Below, one piece after another: positions 3,680 to 16,021 of a stretch of DNA of 29,731 bases (its first letter is position 1; each line of letters starts with the position of its first letter). Source of the stretch: a virus. A program made the position numbers and the translations under genes. The stretch lies in UHGV virus genome UHGV-2199876; one strand, given 5' to 3'. The notes beneath the pieces are model-generated. The model was given only the letters and a program-made list of their open reading frames with translations. It searched no databases and was not told the origin of the DNA.

Positions 3680-4720
3680 ATGGCTACATCGACAGTAATT
3701 CCTGATGACATCAAAACGCTAAAATCCGACGTTAGCAAATTAAAAAACGATCAAGGAAGCTACGCAACAAAATCATATGTAGACAGCAAAGATGAAACCG
3801 TTGGTGACTGGTCTGCTTCATGGTATCAGCAGGTATTGCCAACTAGCGGAGCTATATTTGGGAGAAAACTCCGCTCAACTCACAGGACGGCAGGTGTTGA
3901 GGATGCGTATTGCGAACTATATCTCAAAAAATGGATAGACAGTCCAGGTAACGCAATGGCGCGCCTTAACCTGAACGATAACGGGAAAAACATTTGCTGG
4001 GACTTTACCAACCTTTATGGCGGTACGATGATTTTTCCCGGTGACAGCGGATACCTCAAAATGGGTAACTGCCTTATGTCATACAGCAAACGTGGAAGTA
4101 ACGCGCTTATTAAATTTGATTACACCGACACATTACAGATCAAATATGCTAATCATGGGTCAACCATGACATTAACCACACAGGGATCCGCTCACGCTGG
4201 CGTAACAACTAGACTATGGGGTAATTCTAGCCGTCCGGTTGTTTATGAAGTTGGCGTAGATGAGGCTCTGTATATGTTCTACGCACAGAAAACTACCAGC
4301 AATACCTACGAATTAACGGTTAACGGCGCGTGCAATGCAAGTGCATTTAATCAAGGCTCTGACCGGGATCTGAAAGACAATATTCAGGTGATCGATAATG
4401 CAACCGACCGCATTCGTAAAATGAACGGCTATACATACACGCTTAAAGAAAACGGTATGCCTTACGCTGGTGTTATTGCACAAGAAACCCTGGAAGCCAT
4501 CCCCGAAGCCGTAGGGTCTATGATGAAATATCCAGACGGCGGGAGTGGATTAGATGGAGAAGAAGGTGAACGGTATTACACAGTAGATTATTCTGGTGTT
4601 ACTGGCTTGCTTGTTCAGGTAGCCAGAGAGTCGGACGACAGAATAACAGCACTGGAAGAAGAAAACGCAGAATTAAGACAAAGATTATCTGCAATTGAGG
4701 CGGCGCTTGCGTCTAAATAA
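3680..4720 (+). CDS. Tail fibre / tailspike protein with C-terminal intramolecular chaperone (peptidase S74-like) domain
   Basis: 346-aa ORF containing GSDRDLKDNIQVIDNATDRIRKMNGYTYTLKENG...GVIAQE, which matches the S-D-x-x-L-K-x-N-I autoproteolytic chaperone motif of T5 L-shaped fibre and endosialidase-type proteins. C-terminal coiled coil. Confidence 0.7.
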   Translation: MATSTVIPDDIKTLKSDVSKLKNDQGSYATKSYVDSKDETVGDWSASWYQQVLPTSGAIFGRKLRSTHRTAGVEDAYCELYLKKWIDSPGNAMARLNLNDNGKNICWDFTNLYGGTMIFPGDSGYLKMGNCLMSYSKRGSNALIKFDYTDTLQIKYANHGSTMTLTTQGSAHAGVTTRLWGNSSRPVVYEVGVDEALYMFYAQKTTSNTYELTVNGACNASAFNQGSDRDLKDNIQVIDNATDRIRKMNGYTYTLKENGMPYAGVIAQETLEAIPEAVGSMMKYPDGGSGLDGEEGERYYTVDYSGVTGLLVQVARESDDRITALEEENAELRQRLSAIEAALASK

Positions 4721-7902: not shown

Positions 7903-9816
7903 ATGAGCAAAGTAAAAATCGGTGAATTAATAAACTCACTTGTTAGCGATGTTGAGTCAATAGATAACTCTGACCGTCCTCAAGGGGAGAAAACAAAAAA
8001 AATAAAGGCTGTTGCATTAAAATTTAAAAATGCATTATTTAATGACAAGCGAAAGTTTAGGGGTAAAGGATTAGAAAAAAGAATTACAGCCAACACATTC
8101 AATGCCTATATGAGCAGGGCCAGAAAACGGTTTGATGATAAACTTCATCATAGCTTTGAAAAAAATATACATCGCCTATCTGAAAAGTATCCTTTATATA
8201 ATGAGGAGCTATTATCATGGCTTTCTCTACCTGCTGCCGATATTCGCCAGAGAATGTCAGCTTTACAGGCAAAATTAAAATTAATTCTCCCTCTATCAGA
8301 AGATTTATCTAATATCAGAATTGGCGATAACAAAAATCATAATAAGTTATTAAAATTATCAAATAAATATAAAGAGTGGCAATTCGCCATTTCTGATTTA
8401 ACTAGCGATAACTGGAAAGATAAGCGCGATTATTTATATAAATTACTACAGCAAGGATCTGCCTTACTTGAGGAGTTGAATCAGCTAAAAGTTAACCATG
8501 AGATTCTCTATCATCTTCAACTAAGCCCTGCCGAACGCGCATCTATCCAGCAACGATGGGCGGACGTTCTGCACAATAAGAAACGTAACGTGGTGGTCAT
8601 TGATTACCCCAAATATATGCAAGCTATTTACGATATTATAAATAGCCCTGCTACATTAAATAATCTAAACACTCGTTCAGGTATGGCTCCTTTGGCATTT
8701 GCACTTGCTGCATTGTCAGGAAGACGAATGATTGAGATTATGTATCAAGGTACATTTACTGTTTCTGGTAAGTATACCGTTGATTTTTTAGGCCAAGCAA
8801 AAAAAAGAACTTCTGATGATATAACCAGAAAAATATATACATTATGCGAAGCAAAAACATTTGTTTATTTAATAAATGTACTTCGCTCATGCCCAGCAGC
8901 ATCTGATTTTGATGATGTCGTTAAAGGTTATGGAGATAACGACACACGCTCTGAAAACGGACGGATTAATGCCATATTAGCAAAGGCTTTTAACCCGTGG
9001 GTTAAATCATTTTTCAAAGATGACCGCCGTGTTTATAAAGATAGTCGTGCTATTTATGCCCGTATTGCGTATGAAATGTTTTTCCGCGTAGATCCTCGTT
9101 GGAAAAACGTAGATGAGGATGTTTTCTTTATGGAAATTTTAGGCCATGACGATGAAAACACTCAATTACACTATAAGCAATTCAAGCTGGCCAACTTCTC
9201 AAAGACATGGAGGCCAAATACTGGAAACGAAAATACCAGGCTGGAAGCATTGCAGCAGCTTGATGACGAAATGCCAGGATTCGCCAGAGGAGATGCCGGA
9301 GTTCGTCTGCATAACACAGTTAAGCAGCTGGTAGAGCAGGACCCCTCTATAAAAATCACGAACAGCACTCTAAGAGCATTCAAATTTAGCCCTACAATGA
9401 TTAGTCGATACCTAGAATTTGCTGCTGATGCTCTGGGGCAATTTGTTGGCGAAAATGGACAATGGCAGCTGAAAATAGATTCTCCAGAAATCGTTATGCC
9501 TGACGAAGAAGAGCTGGAAGCAATACCTGAACAGACGGATGAATTATCAGAGGATGACGATCTGGATGACGACGAAATTGAGATAGAGATAGAGGAAGAG
9601 GAAGAGGAAGAGGAAGAGGAAGAGAGCGTAGAAGAACAGCAACCGCCCGCGCCTTCTTCACCTGTATCTAAGCCGGTATTTAAGCCTGTGAGAAATATTG
9701 GTGATGGATCATACGTTGTTGAATTTCATTATAATGGCCAGAATTATGCTTGGTCCGGCAGTGCAAACAGCCCTATATCAGCAATGCAGTTAGCATGGCT
9801 GACATATTTCGGATAA
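7903..9816 (+). CDS. telN: Protelomerase (telomere resolvase) TelN
   Basis: 637-aa ORF closely matching N15 TelN as I remember it (MSKVKIGELIN..., RITANTFNAYMSRARKRFDDKLHHSF, VVVIDYP, GRINAILAKAFNPWVKSFF). Acidic C-terminal tract. SD GGAGAGG upstream. Confidence 0.93.
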   Translation: MSKVKIGELINSLVSDVESIDNSDRPQGEKTKKIKAVALKFKNALFNDKRKFRGKGLEKRITANTFNAYMSRARKRFDDKLHHSFEKNIHRLSEKYPLYNEELLSWLSLPAADIRQRMSALQAKLKLILPLSEDLSNIRIGDNKNHNKLLKLSNKYKEWQFAISDLTSDNWKDKRDYLYKLLQQGSALLEELNQLKVNHEILYHLQLSPAERASIQQRWADVLHNKKRNVVVIDYPKYMQAIYDIINSPATLNNLNTRSGMAPLAFALAALSGRRMIEIMYQGTFTVSGKYTVDFLGQAKKRTSDDITRKIYTLCEAKTFVYLINVLRSCPAASDFDDVVKGYGDNDTRSENGRINAILAKAFNPWVKSFFKDDRRVYKDSRAIYARIAYEMFFRVDPRWKNVDEDVFFMEILGHDDENTQLHYKQFKLANFSKTWRPNTGNENTRLEALQQLDDEMPGFARGDAGVRLHNTVKQLVEQDPSIKITNSTLRAFKFSPTMISRYLEFAADALGQFVGENGQWQLKIDSPEIVMPDEEELEAIPEQTDELSEDDDLDDDEIEIEIEEEEEEEEEEESVEEQQPPAPSSPVSKPVFKPVRNIGDGSYVVEFHYNGQNYAWSGSANSPISAMQLAWLTYFG

Positions 9817-9829
9817 AGCATACGGTAAA

Positions 9830-9856
9830 GGCACCGAATTATCGGTGCCTTGTTGT
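9830..9856. terminator. Bidirectional terminator hairpin between telN and convergent minus-strand genes
   Basis: GGCACCGA-atta-TCGGTGCC perfect 8-bp stem followed by TTGTTGTGT. Confidence 0.6.
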
Positions 9857-9861
9857 GTGGT

Positions 9862-10026
9862 CTACCTCGCCTGCCCCTTTTCGTCCTCATCCAACTTTCT
9901 GATAGCCGTAGAATCAATACCCGCCGCCATACACACATCAGATGCAACAAACCACGGTTCGCCGTTGATCATCACTACACGAACCTGATGCTCTTCCTGA
10001 AAGGAAAAGACTGCTAACGCGCTCAT
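9862..10026 (-). CDS. Truncated Bro-N / antirepressor N-terminal-domain protein (54 aa; below the ORF-track length cutoff)
   Basis: Hand translation gives MSALAVFSFQEEHQVRVVMINGEPWFVASDVCMAAGIDSTAIRKLDEDEKGQAR, which fits the Bro-N/Ant N-terminal signature (F.F....R....GEPWFVA.DV......D....LD.DEK). Its ATG overlaps the stop of the upstream ORF (ATGA) with a GGAGG SD. Confidence 0.55.
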   Translation of the reverse strand: MSALAVFSFQEEHQVRVVMINGEPWFVASDVCMAAGIDSTAIRKLDEDEKGQAR

Positions 10027-10256
10027 TCAGCCTCCTTATCGCGCAGCAAGTGCGACGAGAGAGACGCAGAATATCCCTGTGCTTCATGCGTTAACTCACA
10101 CGCAATCTGCAGAAGTTTTCCAGCCTCTGAGAGGTAAATCGACGCCTCACAACTGGAGACTGTCCGATGGGCTGATGATACGAGCGCATAGACCTGAGCC
10201 AGACGTTCATCCAACGATTCCAGCAGGCCAACAGTGTTCATTTTTACCTGATTCAT
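10023..10256 (-). CDS. Small protein translationally coupled to the Bro-N ORF (candidate icd-like leader gene)
   Basis: 77-aa ORF with a GAGGTGG SD 4 nt upstream. Its stop overlaps the start of the Bro-N ORF, the same coupling seen for icd-ant in P1 immI. The icd-like label is by arrangement only. Confidence 0.4.
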   Translation of the reverse strand: MNQVKMNTVGLLESLDERLAQVYALVSSAHRTVSSCEASIYLSEAGKLLQIACELTHEAQGYSASLSSHLLRDKEAE

Positions 10257-10423
10257 GCAGCCACCTCGCGCACCGGAATACGGGCAGACAATACCAGGAC
10301 AAACCGGCTGGCGAACTGGCGACGAGCTTCCCGTTCAGATGACGCGATAGTGGAAAGATGATGAATGTGGGACTTTTTGTCTGTGCGAACGACTGCCGCA
10401 AATTTGAATTTGAACATGGTATG

Positions 10424-10640
10424 CACTCCGTTTTATTGGTCGTGCTACCACCAGAGTTGCGAATCTCTTTATTGGTGGTAGCCCAGGCGGGGTTCGCAAT
10501 ACCGGTAAACGAAGAAACCGGCCCGACCGAAGTCAGCCCCACCTGAGCCACCATAATTCGGATATGCGCAGGTCTATACACACAAAAAAACACGCTGGCG
10601 CGTGTTGTGCGCTTCGTTTTGCCAGGATTGCGAAGTCCCG
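10424..10640 (-). promoter_or_regulatory. Candidate RNA regulatory leader (structured, with mutually complementary heptamers) upstream of the icd-like/Bro-N ORFs
   Basis: About 530 bp with no credible ORF. Perfect 10-bp stem GCTACCACCA...TGGTGGTAGC (10444-10482) with TTGCGAA in its loop; the complementary TTCGCAA at 10495-10501; a second TTGCGAA at 10629-10635. Confidence 0.3.
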
Positions 10641-10797
10641 ACTGCGGGATTTACCGCAGCGAGGTGACTTTACCTCCAAAACGACGCACACGTCAATAAT
10701 TTGCAAAGACATTTTACCCCGTGACCAGTCACGGGGACAGGTGTTTTTATAGTTTGCTTGAACGAGTGATCAGAAGTTGATCGTTAATCAAAGGCCA

Positions 10798-11109
10798 TTA
10801 CGGATTAAGAGAGTGGAAATACCTAACTAACTTACCGGCATCATCACATTTTTCTTTATCTTCTTCCTTAACATAGCCGCGACAGAAGGCTGAATAAAAT
10901 TTCGCATTTTCAGAAGCAAAAGCAGCCGTCGAAAGGAGCAGTTCTTTGCATGATTCTTTTGATGCAGCATCGGGATTATTTTTACATGCAAGCTCCGCTG
11001 ATGAGTTAATAACAGAAATGCTATCTTCCTGGGCATAAACCGCAGCAGAAAAGGCAAAACATAAAACCAAAATAAAACTCTTCACTTTATCTCCTGTAAC
11101 AGTTATCAC
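10798..11109 (-). CDS. Small secreted cysteine-containing protein (103 aa, signal peptide)
   Basis: N-terminal hydrophobic signal (FILVLCFAFSAAVYAQ) and at least 4 Cys in the mature part. SD GGAG upstream. AT-rich relative to its neighbours. Confidence 0.5.
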   Translation of the reverse strand: MITVTGDKVKSFILVLCFAFSAAVYAQEDSISVINSSAELACKNNPDAASKESCKELLLSTAAFASENAKFYSAFCRGYVKEEDKEKCDDAGKLVRYFHSLNP

Positions 11110-11112
11110 AAC

Positions 11113-11520
11113 TCAATCAACTTTTTTAGCATCAGCCATACGCTTCAACCAGTAATCAACAATCGGCTGCTCATCCACAGAATGTTTACCAGGTATAACT
11201 CGCCAGCTATCTTGCGAAAATCTGCCGTACTTACGCGGGAATAGGCCTTTCTTTATCTCCCGCCATGTACTAGGAAAACCATCCACAAAAGTACCAATTA
11301 ACAGGAGAGGGACAAAAATCAGAGCTACAAACCATCGTGCAAGAAAGTGTTCAACAACAACATTTTCACCGTTGTAGTAATACGCATACGCATCCAATAT
11401 GCGAATTTTCCTTACCTTAAAAATAGCCTTATGCTGAGAACGACTTAACTTGATACGAATGTATCCCTTATCCAAAGGGGATTCGTATTTGTATGATTGA
11501 AAAGCCATTTTTAACCCCAC
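11113..11520 (-). CDS. Hypothetical membrane protein (135 aa, one central TM segment)
   Basis: ORF with the hydrophobic segment WFVALIFVPLLLIGTFV. Translationally coupled to its neighbours. Confidence 0.5.
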   Translation of the reverse strand: MGLKMAFQSYKYESPLDKGYIRIKLSRSQHKAIFKVRKIRILDAYAYYYNGENVVVEHFLARWFVALIFVPLLLIGTFVDGFPSTWREIKKGLFPRKYGRFSQDSWRVIPGKHSVDEQPIVDYWLKRMADAKKVD

Positions 11521-11841: not shown

Positions 11842-12033
11842 TTACTCCCCGTTCACCGAAAAATCACGATAGAAGCGTTTCCACATACGATAAGTCTGCG
11901 CGAGTTGTTCACCACGAAACATCGCCTTCCTGGCCTTCATGTTTTCCTTGTGAGACTTTCGATCTATGAACCAAAACCATTGCTGGAACACACAAAGCAA
12001 GAGACACAAAGATAATATCCACTGATTACCCAT
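11842..12033 (-). CDS. Small membrane protein (63 aa) translationally coupled to the repA stop
   Basis: The ATG at 12033-12031 overlaps the repA TAA (ATGGGTAA). Sequence MGNQWILSLCLLLCVFQQWFWF... has one TM segment. The ORF track's longer 102-aa version runs back into repA. Confidence 0.35.
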   Translation of the reverse strand: MGNQWILSLCLLLCVFQQWFWFIDRKSHKENMKARKAMFRGEQLAQTYRMWKRFYRDFSVNGE

Positions 12034-15000
12034 AGAAAGCGCCCTGCTCTTCGTAGCTGCATGAGCTATTCCCGGTAATGTATTCTCGTAACCGCCGCAA
12101 TTCATTGCTGGACAAGTGATCCATGAACTCTGTGAGATACAGAGATGCAAACGTCATAGCTATGCTGGCTGATGACCATGATGACATAGTGGCCAGCTCC
12201 TCACCGGAAAGCGCACTCATCGCCCAGGACTCAGGAACAGCCACCGGCAATACGGCCAAAGCCTCAGAAATTACTGAATGAGGGGCGTTTTGAACCTGCT
12301 CGTTTGTGGATCGCGTTTTATCATCCATATATATATTGAGATCCAAATCGCGATCCATTTCGATGGCTGTCTTCTCGGCTTTACGCGTTTTTAGGGTTAG
12401 GCCATCTTTCTGACGCTGAACAAGAATATCCAGCATAAATGCCGCTGATTCAGGCTCAACAAAACGCAAGGTTGGACGCTTATCGCCGTCTCTGCCGCGA
12501 CGTTTACCTGTTTTAAGGCCAAGAGAGTCGCAAATGTTTTTAAACAACGCTTCCGGCACTTTAGGCTTCCCTTTTGGCGTCATAAAACCACCAATGTGCA
12601 GAACGTTATTCAACAGGTCACGGCGTTCGGCTGTCATGAGGTTATCTCGAGCGAATTTGAGACGCTCCTGAGTCGCCTCGCCGGTCATAGTCTCAGGGTT
12701 GATACCGCAGTCGATAAAGTACTGCCGGAGAGTTGCTGATTTAAGCGCATAGAAACCGCGCGCCCCGACTTCAACAGTAGGAGTAGCTTTTACCTTGTAG
12801 TCGATTATTCCAGGGAATTTAGTTTTAAAGACATCATCAGCCTGCTCGCGAGTCATCGCGGTCACTACAAAATATTGCCACTGTCCCGCCTGACGGTATG
12901 CGTAGGTAAAATTGATGGCTGCTTCTTCCCGGTCGTAACGACGAGCTGTTACCTCATCTAAAAGCATTGTTTCATAGCGGCGAACTTTGTCTCGAGCACC
13001 ATCGAAATAGAATTTCAGCGTGCCTTCTTCAACCGGTAGTTTCAGTTCGTTCTCAATATCCCAGCGGACAAGTTTTGCTTGTTCTTCAAGCGTCAGCGCG
13101 CGTTTTTTTAGCAGTTCTTCACGCTCTGATTCTTGTGGAGTTTCTGTATTGAGATGCAGATCCAGTGTCTGTTCCCACACAATATCCCGCGCTTCTTTAC
13201 GCAGATCTTTACCGATATCATTCGCAGCATAATCGGTGGCCAGCGGCGATACCTTATAACCGTCGCTGTGCATGATGCAGATCATGTTGCTGGCGTAGTC
13301 GTTACGCGCAGACGCTTCAATTGCGGCTGCTTTAATTTTCATCCTGGTAAAGTCGGTATTGGCCACCCCCATTGATATACGGTCGCCATCGAAAACGACA
13401 TCCGTCAGTTCACCGTTCATGCCTGCGGTAGCAAGCAATGCCTGGGCGAATGCTCGTTCTATTTTTTGCGGGTCAGTTTCACGTTTTGCGCGAGCTTTAT
13501 CAAAGCCGATAATAAATTCTTTTGCTGTACGGTCGCGGCGTAGCATTTGCACTGCGTCGCTGGGTACAACTTCACCACAGAACATGCCGAAATGACGGTC
13601 AAAATGTTTTTGCTCAATCGACACACCGGATGAAATAGACGGGCTATAAATCAGGCCGTCGTATTTTTTGACCATCTTTTTCGGTTGATTGGTAAATGCT
13701 TCAACTTCTGGCTCTGGTTTGTTTTTCTGGTTTACACACAGAAATTTCTTACCAGGAAAATGCATTCTCAGGGTGGCTGTCACATCTTCTGCAAAGGTGG
13801 AGCTGTCGGTGGCCAACATGATTTTTTCGCCATCCGATACAGCTTTCACCACCTCGGTCATAATGCGATCTTTTTCTGTATAAAAAACCCGGATTGGCTC
13901 ACCTGTTTCGCGGTTGCGAACATCAACAGGTAATTCAATTACGTGGATCTGCAGCCATGCCGGTAAACCTAGTTCTTCACGGCGTTTCATAGCCAGTTCA
14001 GCCAGGTCAACCAGCAGATCGTTCGCATCAGCATCCACCATTATTGGGTGTTGTTCCGTTCTGGCCAGCGCGTCGATTAACGTATTGAATACAGCCACCG
14101 GGTTTTCCATAGCCCGACCGGAAAGAACGGCACGTAGCCCTTGCGTGGCCTCGTCAAAGCCAAAATAGTCGTGCTGGCGCATCAACGGTTGCCAGCAGTT
14201 TTTAACAATCGAGTTTATGCAGATGGTCAGTTTACTGGCGTATGGAGCCATTTCCTGATAGCCAGGGTCCTGATAGTGCAGGATATCGGCTTTTACACCT
14301 TTTCCTTCTGTCATCATTTCCCACAGGCCACCAATAAGGGAAACACGGTGAGCAACAGAGATACCACGTTCTGAGCTATGCATTAAAGGTCGTAACAATC
14401 CAGTAGATTTGCCGGAACCCATACCAGCACGAACGATGACTATCCCCTGTAGTGATTGCACATACTTCAGGACGTCATCGGTCATTACCGAAGTTTCAAA
14501 ACGCTTATAGGTGATATGTTGAGGACGTTTATTGGGATCAGTTATGCGTTCGCTGAATGAGCGCGGAGCCTGGGCAATACGGCACTTTTTATTCAGGCGA
14601 CGGGCAATGTGGTCTTTTACCGTAGCGCGATAGATATTTTCCAGCCCCATTTCACGCAGAACGATGCAGAACATGTTAAATAAGTCTGACGGACTGTTAG
14701 GAACCGGACAGGTTAGCATGCCAATATCCACCGCTCTCAGCAGCTCTTTGGCAAAAGTACGACGGTTATCCCGCTTAATTGTCTTCAGGCGGTTGAGCGT
14801 CAGAGATAGCAAATCAGTGCCGGTTTTCAGGCGGTTTGCAGTTGCAAACAGTTGACGTGCTGTTTCACGAAGTCCACGCAGTTTGTGCAGGTCGTTGAAG
14901 TCACTGCACTCCATTTGCGGATCGTCTTCAAAAGTTGGATAGACGCAGCGGACATCGTTGAATTTCGATAAGATTTCATAGCCAGTCCGCAGGCCGGTAT

Positions 15001-16021
15001 TCCCTTTTCCTTCTGTGGCTGATTTCCGGTCATTATCCAGTGCGCAGGTGATTTTTGCCGCCGGGTACATGTTTACCAGTTGTTCCACAACATGAACCAT
15101 GTTATTAGCGGATACAGCGACAACCACAGCGTCAAAGCGTTTATCTTTTTTCGTGGCAAGCCAGATGGATGCACCAGTAGCAAAACCTTCTGTAACAGCG
15201 ATGTTTTGCGCCCCTTTTAGCTCACCGATAACAAAGCAGGCACCGACGAAATCGCCGCTGGTTACGGCGCTGGTCTGGTATTTTCCACCTTGTTTGTCGA
15301 TTCGCTGCCAACCCACAATACGACCATCGTAACGACCGTCCAGGTGAGCCAGAGGGATAGCCATATACGTGGTTGGCCCCCTGCTCCATTTTGCGCTGTC
15401 GTGACTGGTCACGCGACGCACATCACACGAATTAAAAACGTCACGAATACCTTTTTTAATCGCATATGGCCATGAGCCGTCTTCTGCAGGAGCATGTTCC
15501 CACGCGCTGTGGAATGCCAGCCATCCCAGCAAACGTTCATGGTCCATTTGGTTGTTTTTCAGGTCATTAATTCGTTTTTGTTCTTCACGGCGACGACGTG
15601 CTTCGGCCTGACGTTCTATTCTTGCCCGTTCTTCTTCCGGTTGTGCGACCACGGTCGCATTATTCCGTTGTTGCTCACGGCGATATTCAGAAAACAGGAA
15701 GGAGAAACCGCTCCATGAGCCAGCATCGCTGCCTTTATGGACGAAGTTAATGAACGGGTAATCAATCCCTTTGCTGTGTTCCAGCCGGGAGTAAATTTCT
15801 ACGCGTCCTTTGAGGCTCTTTTCGAGAGCTTCTGGAGATGTTTTATTGTATGAAGAGTAACGCTCAACACCCCCGCGAGGGTTGAGTTGGATGTTGTCGG
15901 AACAGGCAGACCAGTTGATACCAGCCATCTGTGCCAGCTCGGTTAGTTCATCCCGTGCTGCTTCAATTAGCGAGAACGGATCGCTGCCAAAGCGATCCGC
16001 ATAGAAATCGTTTAATGTCAT
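12026..16021 (-). CDS. repA: Replication protein RepA (multidomain primase-helicase, N15 RepA / P4 alpha-like)
   Basis: 1331-aa ORF with Walker A (VRAGMGSGKST) in the central helicase region and a primase-like N-terminal part. Size and position match N15 repA. Confidence 0.9.
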   Translation of the reverse strand: MTLNDFYADRFGSDPFSLIEAARDELTELAQMAGINWSACSDNIQLNPRGGVERYSSYNKTSPEALEKSLKGRVEIYSRLEHSKGIDYPFINFVHKGSDAGSWSGFSFLFSEYRREQQRNNATVVAQPEEERARIERQAEARRRREEQKRINDLKNNQMDHERLLGWLAFHSAWEHAPAEDGSWPYAIKKGIRDVFNSCDVRRVTSHDSAKWSRGPTTYMAIPLAHLDGRYDGRIVGWQRIDKQGGKYQTSAVTSGDFVGACFVIGELKGAQNIAVTEGFATGASIWLATKKDKRFDAVVVAVSANNMVHVVEQLVNMYPAAKITCALDNDRKSATEGKGNTGLRTGYEILSKFNDVRCVYPTFEDDPQMECSDFNDLHKLRGLRETARQLFATANRLKTGTDLLSLTLNRLKTIKRDNRRTFAKELLRAVDIGMLTCPVPNSPSDLFNMFCIVLREMGLENIYRATVKDHIARRLNKKCRIAQAPRSFSERITDPNKRPQHITYKRFETSVMTDDVLKYVQSLQGIVIVRAGMGSGKSTGLLRPLMHSSERGISVAHRVSLIGGLWEMMTEGKGVKADILHYQDPGYQEMAPYASKLTICINSIVKNCWQPLMRQHDYFGFDEATQGLRAVLSGRAMENPVAVFNTLIDALARTEQHPIMVDADANDLLVDLAELAMKRREELGLPAWLQIHVIELPVDVRNRETGEPIRVFYTEKDRIMTEVVKAVSDGEKIMLATDSSTFAEDVTATLRMHFPGKKFLCVNQKNKPEPEVEAFTNQPKKMVKKYDGLIYSPSISSGVSIEQKHFDRHFGMFCGEVVPSDAVQMLRRDRTAKEFIIGFDKARAKRETDPQKIERAFAQALLATAGMNGELTDVVFDGDRISMGVANTDFTRMKIKAAAIEASARNDYASNMICIMHSDGYKVSPLATDYAANDIGKDLRKEARDIVWEQTLDLHLNTETPQESEREELLKKRALTLEEQAKLVRWDIENELKLPVEEGTLKFYFDGARDKVRRYETMLLDEVTARRYDREEAAINFTYAYRQAGQWQYFVVTAMTREQADDVFKTKFPGIIDYKVKATPTVEVGARGFYALKSATLRQYFIDCGINPETMTGEATQERLKFARDNLMTAERRDLLNNVLHIGGFMTPKGKPKVPEALFKNICDSLGLKTGKRRGRDGDKRPTLRFVEPESAAFMLDILVQRQKDGLTLKTRKAEKTAIEMDRDLDLNIYMDDKTRSTNEQVQNAPHSVISEALAVLPVAVPESWAMSALSGEELATMSSWSSASIAMTFASLYLTEFMDHLSSNELRRLREYITGNSSCSYEEQGAFYG
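15644..15659. other. sopC-like centromere site (TGCGACC-AC-GGTCGCA) inside repA
   Basis: 16-bp match to the inverted repeat shared by the four other sites. Same 7-2-7 architecture as F sopC (TGGGACC-AC-GGTCCCA). Confidence 0.55.

Follow-up and report, generated by a model that had tools for sequence, protein, structure and literature searches.

The silencing of an antirepressor operon by a C4/CA-type antisense RNA that acts with two target sites and a leader is already well known. It has been described for the c4 RNA of the immI region of phages P1 and P7 (Citron & Schuster 1990) and for the CA RNA of the immA region of phage N15 (Ravin, Svarchevsky & Deho 1999). C4 is cleaved by RNase P at a GGW motif, and its b' box occludes the ribosome-binding site while its a' box confers specificity (PMC5320573). 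That the RNA acts in trans against antirepressor synthesis is known for P1 and P7 and has been reported for N15. The immA operon consists of icd, antA and antB, and antirepression in N15 is under the control of a small processed RNA (PMC4488713). In P4, the CI RNA, with seqA, seqB and seqC, is the primary immunity factor and shuts off the replication genes rather than controlling an antirepressor; premature termination has been summarised as the mode of control in that system (PMC4825925). In the Salmonella prophage Gifsy-1, the two-hairpin leader IsrK/STnc1160 (RF01394) ends at an intrinsic terminator; a processed C4-like RNA and a gene resembling antirepressors come after it. IsrK is structurally homologous to P4 seqA, and the processed RNA downstream of it is CI-like (PMC4825925).

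The stretch of DNA analysed here (the window; 29,731 nucleotides) is 100% identical to Escherichia phage PhiR46_1, a telomere phage of the N15 type whose prophage is a linear plasmid. Between telN (7903-9816) and repA (12026-16021), it harbors icd, antA and antB in the order of N15 immA, and the locus is syntenic with the N15 telN-immA region, with a DNA identity of ~79-82% across the leader. In the matching region, the N15 record carries the features 'cA: secondary immunity repressor', genes 30-32 and the leader terminator. The link to the small RNA of N15 anti-immunity that the original prediction had drawn is thus borne out, and the likeness extends to the position between telN and repA, gene order, promoter, leader terminator, C4-type RNA and layout of the boxes. 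With high confidence, we take the locus to be the region that controls secondary immunity (anti-immunity, immA-type) in an N15-like telomere phage, and its RNA to be an orthologue of N15 CA and a member of the P1/P7 c4 - P4 CI family; what is established is the identity of the locus, its fold, the complementarity and co-variation of its boxes, its gene content and its synteny. There is little new in this orthologue of the N15 CA RNA locus, which has different specificity boxes, and by itself it raises no new question.

All the elements of the locus described below lie on the minus strand. The first gene of the operon, icd (10253-10417, 54 aa), matches NCBIfam NF033153 (phage_ICD_like) with 67 bits against a 25-bit cutoff. 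Its product shares 94% identity with the last 54 aa of N15 gp32, and the gene is already a CDS in the PhiR46_1 record. The claim that 10270-10800 is devoid of any credible coding frame is contradicted by this gene, and the untranslated leader is limited to ~10418-10660. The ORF at 10023-10256 (77 aa), which had been read as icd-like, actually encodes an AntA-like antirepressor that is 63% identical to N15 gp31 and belongs to PHROG 10889 ('anti-repressor'); its equivalent in phiKO2, Gp28, is noted as 'similar to antirepressor N15 AntA'. Next comes a truncated antB (9862-10026, 54 aa), which matches only the N-terminal part of the Pfam Bro-N domain (30.7 bits). Its product is 62% identical to residues 1-52 of N15 gp30, a protein of 264 aa, and with 54 of ~264 codons kept the operon is not intact relative to that of N15. 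ATGA overlaps connect the icd stop with the antA start and the antA stop with the antB start. The gene content also differs from that of P1, whose antirepressor is Ant1/Ant2, in that a small AntA and a Bro-N remnant are found here.

A consensus scan revealed a sigma-70-type promoter at 10667-10696 (TTGACG, 18-nt spacer, TAAAGT), equivalent to N15 Pa and P1 P1c4, and ATTGAC and TAnnnT are invariant columns in an alignment of 12 homologues. In P1, a C1 operator governs the promoters. Model position 1 of isrK maps 7 nt past the -10 hexamer, and the transcript is predicted to start at ~10660. The leader RNA (10585-10660), homologous to IsrK, P4 seqA and the P1 a1b1 leader, matches the isrK model (RF01394) over its full length with 52.8 bits for a gathering score of 50. 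It comprises, in this order, hairpin 1, hairpin 2 with target a1 in its loop, target b1 and an intrinsic terminator, the hairpins being seen in the computed fold. On the c4-a1b1 model (RF03163), it reaches 24.8 bits for a gathering score of 46.7, with one extra nucleotide in the a1 loop here; five Klebsiella homologues are above the gathering score for both models. The leader covariance model also matches the leaders of N15, phiKO2, P1 and P4, the isrK score of the last being 60.8 bits. The Rho-independent terminator (10585-10606) is made of a 7-bp stem, AACACGC-GCCA-GCGUGUU, followed by a U run; it aligns with the annotated terminators of N15 and phiKO2 in a block that is nearly invariant among homologues. 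Both signals are conserved, and the leader is predicted to be a primary transcript that runs from the promoter to this terminator. Premature termination had been expected between the effector and 10256, but the only intrinsic terminator lies upstream of the effector RNA. Between C4 and antA none was found, the sole terminator-like match (10530-10518) being a hairpin of C4 itself.

The effector, a C4/CA-type antisense RNA, lies at 10471-10558. The Rfam covariance search for the c4/CI family that had been proposed as a check matched RF01695 there with 82.3 bits (gathering score, 45; E 6e-15; model positions 1-87 of 87), and the same model gives 74.9 bits on P4 CI. With the 88-nt RNA as a query, blastn did not recover P1, because the sequences are too diverged. 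Structure prediction, the other check that had been suggested, yielded a C4 fold of -47.6 kcal/mol (z = -5.7) for which the MFE and centroid structures are identical. This fold, which is also that of P1/P7 c4, consists of a long closing stem, a UUCG tetraloop hairpin, a second hairpin and a joint, and leaves b' and a' unpaired. The RNA shares with P1/P7 c4 the AU|GGU 5' processing context and the ...CCACC 3' end; aligned to the annotated ends of P1 c4, the RNase P-type signatures are AU|GGU at 10554-10550 and ...CUACCACCA at 10481-10473. By homology with those ends, the mature RNA would extend from 10552 to 10474 (~79 nt), with GGU at its 5' end and ...CCACC at its 3' end. The layout annotated in P1, namely a1, b1, a terminator-like hairpin, c4, a2, b2, icd and ant, is found again with near-identical spacing.

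Each of the two unpaired boxes of C4 has two partners. Box a' (10493-10499, RNA UUGCGAA), in the single-stranded joint, can form 8 bp with target a1 (10627-10634, RNA UUCGCAAU), in the loop of leader hairpin 2, and 7 bp with target a2 (10457-10463, RNA UUCGCAA). Box b' (10507-10514, RNA CUUCGUUU), in the loop of the second C4 hairpin, is the perfect complement of target b1 (10612-10619, RNA AAACGAAG) over 8 bp and forms 8 bp, including one G-U, with target b2 (10426-10433, RNA AAACGGAG). The icd Shine-Dalgarno sequence GGAG (10429-10426) is located inside b2, 8 nt ahead of the AUG, and this overlap is present in every homologue; in P1 also, the b2 feature, annotated 10 nt upstream of icd, lies at the ribosome-binding site of that gene. 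The original prediction had recognized the a boxes as complementary heptamers. It placed TTGCGAA correctly in the loop of a stem (10457-10463), and the two other motifs exist as well but at slightly different positions, TTCGCAA at 10493-10499 (plus-strand letters) rather than 10495-10501 and the second TTGCGAA at 10628-10634 rather than 10629-10635. The central heptamer is the effector, and the flanking copies are targets a1 and a2. The extra flanking complementarity that had been reported corresponds to inverted repeats of 17 nt at 82% (a1/a'), 14 nt at 79% and 8 nt at 100% (b1/b'). With the matches of the C4 and isrK models, the proposed target-effector-target antisense RNA of the P1 c4/P4 CI/N15 CA type, controlling an antirepressor operon, is supported.

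Three-way co-variation of the boxes is seen across 12 to 17 homologues, N15, phiKO2, P1 and P4 among them. In 12 homologues, pairing of the a':a2 helix reaches 96.4%, with compensatory changes in five of its seven pairs, and the b1:b' helix has changes on both sides in seven of eight pairs. MAFFT had set the a1 of the window one column off register, with an initial a1:a' pairing of 43.8%; when the register was slid by -1, the joint pairing of the a1:a' and b1:b' helices rose from 56.9% to 75.8%. The duplexes of C4 with its cognate targets have mean energies of -28.1 and -24.9 kcal/mol, compared with -16.2 and -16.7 kcal/mol for non-cognate ones, and the cognate target is top-ranked in 10 and 9 of the 12 rows. 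In 17 of 17 loci, P1 and P4 included, C4 contains a k-mer with complements in the leader as well as in the downstream region.

That the heptamers and the stem might be chance repeats in an AT/GC-mixed intergenic spacer would fit with their frequency over the whole window, where the eight matches equal the 7.9 expected after shuffling and the heptamer is not enriched. However, three copies fall within 178 nt, an arrangement expected ~0.05 times at the whole-window density, and seven a-box alleles occur among the 12 homologues, with a1, a' and a2 changing together in each. Given this three-way co-variation and the matches of curated covariance models (E 6e-15), chance deserves practically no credence and was discarded. 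It has also been considered that 10410-10593 encodes a protein, be it a 'cA secondary immunity repressor', an 'ash family protein' or an orf45-type product, and that the repeats are incidental. In support of this, the ORF at 10207-10593 matches Pfam Phage_ASH (E 1.6e-12), RefSeq has an 'ash family protein' on eight E. coli plasmids that are identical, among them NZ_CP101200, the N15 and P4 records contain cA and cI CDS features here, and translation of the 45-codon ORF at the equivalent site of Gifsy-1, with coupling to anrP, has been reported (PMC4825925). Nevertheless, when counted from a conserved AUG, the ORF varies from 28 to 115 aa among ten telomere phages, and it occurs in each of the three frames relative to icd; in N15 the ORF that runs through the RNA is in frame with icd and yields gp32 (96 aa), whereas here it is out of frame, and in Klebsiella phage Kpn74 it is frameshifted part-way. 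The variable columns are distributed 13/16/15 over the three codon positions, which shows no codon-position bias, and the substitutions are instead compensatory in RNA helices. Even orf45 is conserved in its nucleotides but not in its amino acids (review, PMC12197685). A protein-coding cA/Ash ORF is thus highly improbable and was rejected on the grounds of its length, frame and lack of codon-position bias, although a short translated ORF may serve ribosome traffic only. The PhiR46_1 record and the eight plasmids have no RNA feature at this place, RefSeq setting the 'ash family protein' over the RNA; the proper annotation for the locus is a C4/CA antisense RNA, an IsrK-type leader and icd-antA.

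We infer the ends of the RNA, its processing, repression in trans, Rho-dependent polarity and the role of a1/b1 from the characterised relatives. Transcription of the minus strand would initiate near 10660 from the sigma-70 promoter (10696-10667), and many transcripts probably end at the terminator (10606-10585), giving rise to an IsrK-type leader of ~76-80 nt that carries a1 and b1. The read-through RNA would hold the tRNA-like, very stable C4 fold, from which RNase P probably excises C4 at AU|GGU, the 3' end being probably trimmed to ...CCACC(A), to release a stable product of ~79 nt (10552-10474). Its exposed a' and b' boxes, in the joint and the hairpin loop, respectively, would pair with a2 and b2 on the operon mRNA. 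Because b2 holds the icd Shine-Dalgarno sequence, its pairing with b' would leave icd untranslated, and antA and the truncated antB would depend on icd translation because of the ATGA overlaps. The untranslated mRNA would then be terminated by Rho, as in P1 and P4; with icd silenced and transcription ended in this way, AntA would not be made and the prophage repressor would stay active. The a' and b' boxes may also pair with a1 and b1, either as a feedback on leader termination and read-through or because the leader titrates C4 as Gifsy-1 IsrK does. For N15, Ravin and colleagues reportedly described control by premature termination in 1999.

Premature termination, which N15 and P4 are both said to use, might also be the main mechanism here, C4 enforcing termination at 10606-10585 by binding to nascent a1/b1 rather than controlling the icd ribosome-binding site. 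The end of b1 is 5 nt ahead of the terminator stem, and a1/b1 co-vary with a'/b' as tightly as a2/b2 do. We nevertheless consider such attenuation rather unlikely as the main mechanism, as no convincing antiterminator that competes with the leader terminator, and that C4 binding would remove, was found in MFE folds, and as the overlap of b2 with the icd Shine-Dalgarno sequence in every homologue would be left unexplained. Attenuation and control at the icd ribosome-binding site can coexist and are not mutually exclusive. Positive control of the IsrK type is a further, equally tentative option. By analogy with Gifsy-1, the short leader with a1 and b1, presumed to be abundant, would bind in trans to the a'/b' of either free C4 or the read-through transcript and lead to icd-antA translation and induction. 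The leader exceeds the isrK gathering score, conserved alternative helices connect the C4 fold with the icd start, and in Gifsy-1 translation of the read-through mRNA is switched on by short IsrK, which pairs with the region equivalent to a'/b' (PMC4825925). On the other hand, the MFE (-47.6 kcal/mol) strongly favors the closed C4 fold, and the downstream genes are arranged differently in Gifsy-1, where the short leader is said to activate orf45-anrP translation in trans; the first downstream gene here is icd. To our knowledge, no IsrK-type trans-activation has been described for N15-type phages.

Downstream of C4, the transcript can form alternative helices. The perfect 10-bp stem of the original prediction (10444-10482) proved exact, with arms at 10444-10453 and 10473-10482 and 19 nt between them that hold a2 in the loop. 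It has an energy of -19 kcal/mol (z = -4.4), is 91.5% paired with 4 compensatory pairs, and a partner for this alternative pairing was found in 17 loci, including those of P4 and P1. This hairpin and the C4 fold are mutually exclusive, because the C4 closing stem uses the 5' arm of the hairpin (10482-10473) as its 3' strand. Another hairpin (10416-10451), in which GUGGUAGCAC (10451-10442) is paired with GUGC-A-UACCAU (10426-10416), covers the icd start codon, leaves b2 in its loop and rivals the 10-bp stem for 10451-10444; it is 91.6% paired, with 5 compensatory pairs and z = -2.7. The chain of mutually exclusive helices formed by the C4 3' strand, the segment after a2 and the icd start is conserved with compensatory changes throughout the C4/CI family, being present in N15-like phages, P1, P4, Stx and P2-like phages. 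P4 resembles the locus also in its downstream Icd-like peptide, three-way complementarity and alternative hairpin. It is conceivable, if somewhat speculative, that the chain is a cis-acting relay by which the way the antisense RNA folds or is processed would affect how the targets are presented and how the first gene is translated. If functional, such a relay could respond to the binding of the short leader RNA and could provide IsrK-type activation with its structural basis. We know of no description of a helix relay of this kind for P1, P4 or N15, and the conserved alternative helices offer a modest lead for work on the c4/CI/IsrK mechanism.

N15-like plasmid-prophages are common in E. coli and Klebsiella, and the locus represents one more specificity allele in the system that sets heteroimmunity among them. 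The N15 boxes are UUGAGAA for a' and UUCUUCUUGU for b', which differ from those found here; judging from P1 and P7, neither phage would be expected to cross-repress the anti-immunity operon of the other. The a box is shared with Kpn74, and the b box with NAR688. The second immA-like locus of phage YDC107_1 was set aside as an inverted duplicate of the same telN-repA block, which is probably an assembly artefact.

The locus between the protelomerase gene (7903-9816, plus strand) and the repA-type gene (12026-16021, minus strand) is orthologous to the N15 CA RNA locus, and its central element belongs to a curated RNA family; what is gained here is a corrected annotation of the locus, a warning on spurious 'ash family protein' calls, and a lead in the form of alternative helices. 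The region matches Escherichia phage PhiR46_1 (PV340565.1) at 100% identity, phage YDC107_1 at 90% and N15 at 79-82%. The secondary-immunity locus of N15 has the same position between protelomerase and repA, and N15 records place there genes 30-32, a feature called 'cA: secondary immunity repressor' and a terminator described as putative and Rho-independent. A 301-nt part of the locus is present at 100% identity on eight complete E. coli genomes (replicons of 46-75 kb). In CP025712.1 (YDC107_1, comparison records L004 and L014), the telN-immA-repA block occurs twice, inverted, with two protelomerase genes; the duplicate is probably no real second locus, having arisen when the assembly read through the hairpin telomere.

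The original prediction, an untranslated leader at 10270-10800 under antisense-RNA control, was right as to the type of regulation; the element belongs to an experimentally characterized family. The Rfam search that it proposed places both C4 and isrK on the minus strand, each above its gathering score: C4 antisense RNA (RF01695) matches at full length at 10471-10558 (82.3 bits against a gathering score of 45, E 6e-15), and isrK (RF01394) at 10585-10660 (52.8 bits against 50). A third, related model, c4-a1b1 (RF03163), stays below its gathering score in the window (24.8 bits) and passes in five Klebsiella homologues. The C4-isrK pair was found in each of 11 homologous loci from telomere phages and Stx phages, as well as in P4 and further phages, and is already annotated in some GenBank records, e.g., LC710660. 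P1 scores 68.8 bits with C4, 51 bits with c4-a1b1 and 35 bits with isrK. The isrK and c4-a1b1 models describe overlapping parts of one leader element (10585-10673, minus strand, in the window; 4218-4312 and 341-418 in the comparison records L015 and L021, respectively), and isrK also matches the P4 seqA leader (60.8 bits) along with the P1 leader (35 bits). Clan CL00128 contains C4 and c4-a1b1, without isrK.

Examination of both strands of 9600-11400 showed that the repeats underlying the prediction are real, with small corrections. The 10-bp inverted repeat (10444-10453/10473-10482) is perfect, and all three heptamers exist, the second and third displaced by 2 and 1 nt from where they had been placed: on the plus strand, TTGCGAA lies at 10457-10463 and 10628-10634, and its complement TTCGCAA at 10493-10499. 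Complementarity extends over 17 nt between 10493-10509 and 10618-10634 (82%), and a perfect complementary 8-mer links 10507-10514 to 10612-10619. The heptamer is not enriched over the window (8 occurrences vs 7.9 expected); about 0.05 cases of three copies within 178 nt are expected at that density. The leader is not 530 nt of non-coding DNA as had been proposed, because 10253-10417 encodes an Icd-like protein.

Effector and target copies can now be assigned, all on the minus strand. Transcription would start from a promoter at 10696-10667 (TTGACG, 18 nt, TAAAGT), whose ATTGAC and TAnnnT are invariant columns among 12 homologues and whose end lies 7 nt ahead of position 1 of the isrK model. 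The leader is predicted to fold, within 10660-10585, into a first hairpin and a second one with target box a1 in its loop (UUCGCAAU, 10634-10627), and continues with box b1 (AAACGAAG, 10619-10612) and an intrinsic terminator (10606-10585) in the same place as the annotated terminators of N15 and phiKO2. The C4 fold follows at 10558-10471 (-47.6 kcal/mol, z = -5.7), with the effector boxes b' in the loop of its second hairpin (CUUCGUUU, 10514-10507) and a' in an unpaired joint (UUGCGAA, 10499-10493). Alignment with the annotated P1 c4 RNA predicts a mature RNA that begins with GGU at 10552 and ends with ...CCACC at 10474. Downstream are the target boxes a2 (UUCGCAA, 10463-10457) and b2 (AAACGGAG, 10433-10426), the latter containing a GGAG Shine-Dalgarno sequence 8 nt upstream of the ATG at 10417. 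Some 20 nt before the -35 hexamer there is a palindrome with perfect 9-bp arms (CCCCGTGAC-CA-GTCACGGGG, 10717-10736), which could act as an operator for the leader promoter or terminate the upstream gene (10798-11109, minus strand). PhiR46_1 gives the name 'Spackle exclusion protein' to the product of that gene, which has a hydrophobic N-terminus; no Pfam family matches it, and PHROG 26765, of unknown function, is its sole match.

The C4 stretch has also been read as protein. An ORF at 10207-10593 (minus strand), named 'ash family protein' by RefSeq on eight identical E. coli plasmids, matches Pfam Phage_ASH (PF10554), and the match falls on translated C4 RNA. Across ten phages, the ORF from the conserved AUG ranges from 28 to 115 aa; all three frames relative to icd occur, one homologue carries a frameshift, and variable columns are spread 13/16/15 over the three codon positions. 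As ORF length, frame and codon positions oppose a protein, we conclude on these comparative grounds that conservation acts on the RNA, a reading with which the history of N15 cA and P4 cI agrees. For orf45, too, the nucleotide sequence is conserved and the peptide sequence is not (PMC12197685). The Phage_ASH family, or at least its calls on the C4 stretch, looks spurious. Over-extended 'antirepressor' or 'Rha' CDS features enclose the C4 RNA in several records of lambdoid phages.

Pairing between the boxes was assessed in an alignment of 12 homologous leaders. It contains seven a-box alleles (a' being UUGCGAA, UUGAGAA, UUCUCAC, GUUCCAA, UUCCUAC, UUUCGAC or GUCCUAA), and in each the changes in a1, a' and a2 go together. 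Pairing in the a':a2 helix reaches 96.4%, with both-side changes in five of seven pairs, and the b1:b' helix shows double changes in seven of eight. As aligned, a1:a' is 43.8% paired, the window being one column out of register, and a slide of -1 raises a1:a' and b1:b' jointly from 56.9% to 75.8%. For duplexes predicted between the C4 boxes and their cognate targets, the mean energy is -28.1 kcal/mol in the leader and -24.9 kcal/mol downstream, against -16.2 and -16.7 kcal/mol with the targets of other phages; the own target ranks top in 10 of 12 rows for the leader and 9 of 12 for the downstream region. At each of the 17 loci examined, P1 and P4 among them, C4 contains a k-mer of 6-9 nt with complements in both regions. 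The window shares its a allele with Klebsiella phage Kpn74 and its b allele with NAR688, and it has an icd at 100% identity to the one in YDC107_1, from which its boxes (within 10426-10634) differ; on these sequence matches the specificity boxes are mosaic, which fits diversification for heteroimmunity, as known for P1 vs P7 (PMC5320573).

The comparisons establish the identity of the RNA, its fold, the co-varying complementary boxes, the position of b2 over the icd Shine-Dalgarno sequence and the stop/start overlaps of the operon. Regulation may proceed as in P1/P7, where C4 is excised by RNase P (PMC5320573; P1 annotation). The excised RNA would pair with a2 and b2 and block icd translation, and the antirepressor gene, coupled to icd, would thereby be silent. 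In P1 and P4, the untranslated mRNA is ended by Rho. A terminator scan found no intrinsic terminator between C4 and antA, the visible one acting upstream of C4. The premature termination before 10256 that had been anticipated would therefore require Rho. By analogy, a1 and b1 could serve feedback on leader termination, as in the P4/N15 type; another possibility is IsrK-like titration or activation by the terminated leader, such action having been demonstrated for IsrK of Gifsy-1 (PMC4825925).

The alternative helices are the unexplained conserved feature of the locus, and its sole part for which no matching published description was found. The 5' arm of the 10-bp stem is the 3' strand of the C4 closing stem, and the two structures are therefore mutually exclusive. 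The stem is conserved (91.5% pairing, four compensatory pairs), and a complementary partner lies 9-19 nt past the C4 match in 17 of 17 loci, with matching changes (CUACCACC/GGUGGUAG, UCACCACC/GGUGGUGA, CCACCGCC/GCGGUGG and, in P4, CUAUCGCC/GGCGAUAG). The same downstream segment can pair instead with GUGC-A-UACCAU (10426-10416), in a second helix (91.6% paired, five compensatory pairs, z = -2.7) with the icd AUG covered and b2 remaining in the loop. The minimum free energy structure predicted for the read-through transcript combines the C4 fold with this second hairpin, which in such a model may simply display a2 and b2 in loops; the helices may also form a relay coupling C4 folding to icd translation.

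The operon itself, with overlapping stop and start codons throughout, begins with the icd-like gene (10253-10417; NCBIfam NF033153, 67 bits; a CDS in PhiR46_1), whose 54-aa product is 94% identical to N15 Icd. It continues with an AntA homologue (10023-10256, 63% identical to N15 gp31) and antB' (9862-10026), all on the minus strand; the equivalent genes of phiKO2 are labelled as homologues of N15 icd, AntA and AntB. Published summaries equate immA with icd, antA and antB and, for the antirepressor, cite Ravin et al. (1999) on control through a small RNA that is processed (PMC4488713; PMC10612081). Of antB, the first 54 codons alone are present, with part of the Bro-N domain, in contrast to 264 aa for N15 gp30 and 258 aa in YDC107_1; Kpn74 likewise has a short 'prophage antirepressor' ORF (64 aa) in the same position. 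The antB' frame ends just short of a convergent hairpin (9829-9852) common to the end of telN, and the protelomerase has, close to its C-terminus, a poly-glutamate tract (EIEIEEEEEEEEEEE) encoded by consecutive GAA/GAG codons (9545-9625, plus strand).
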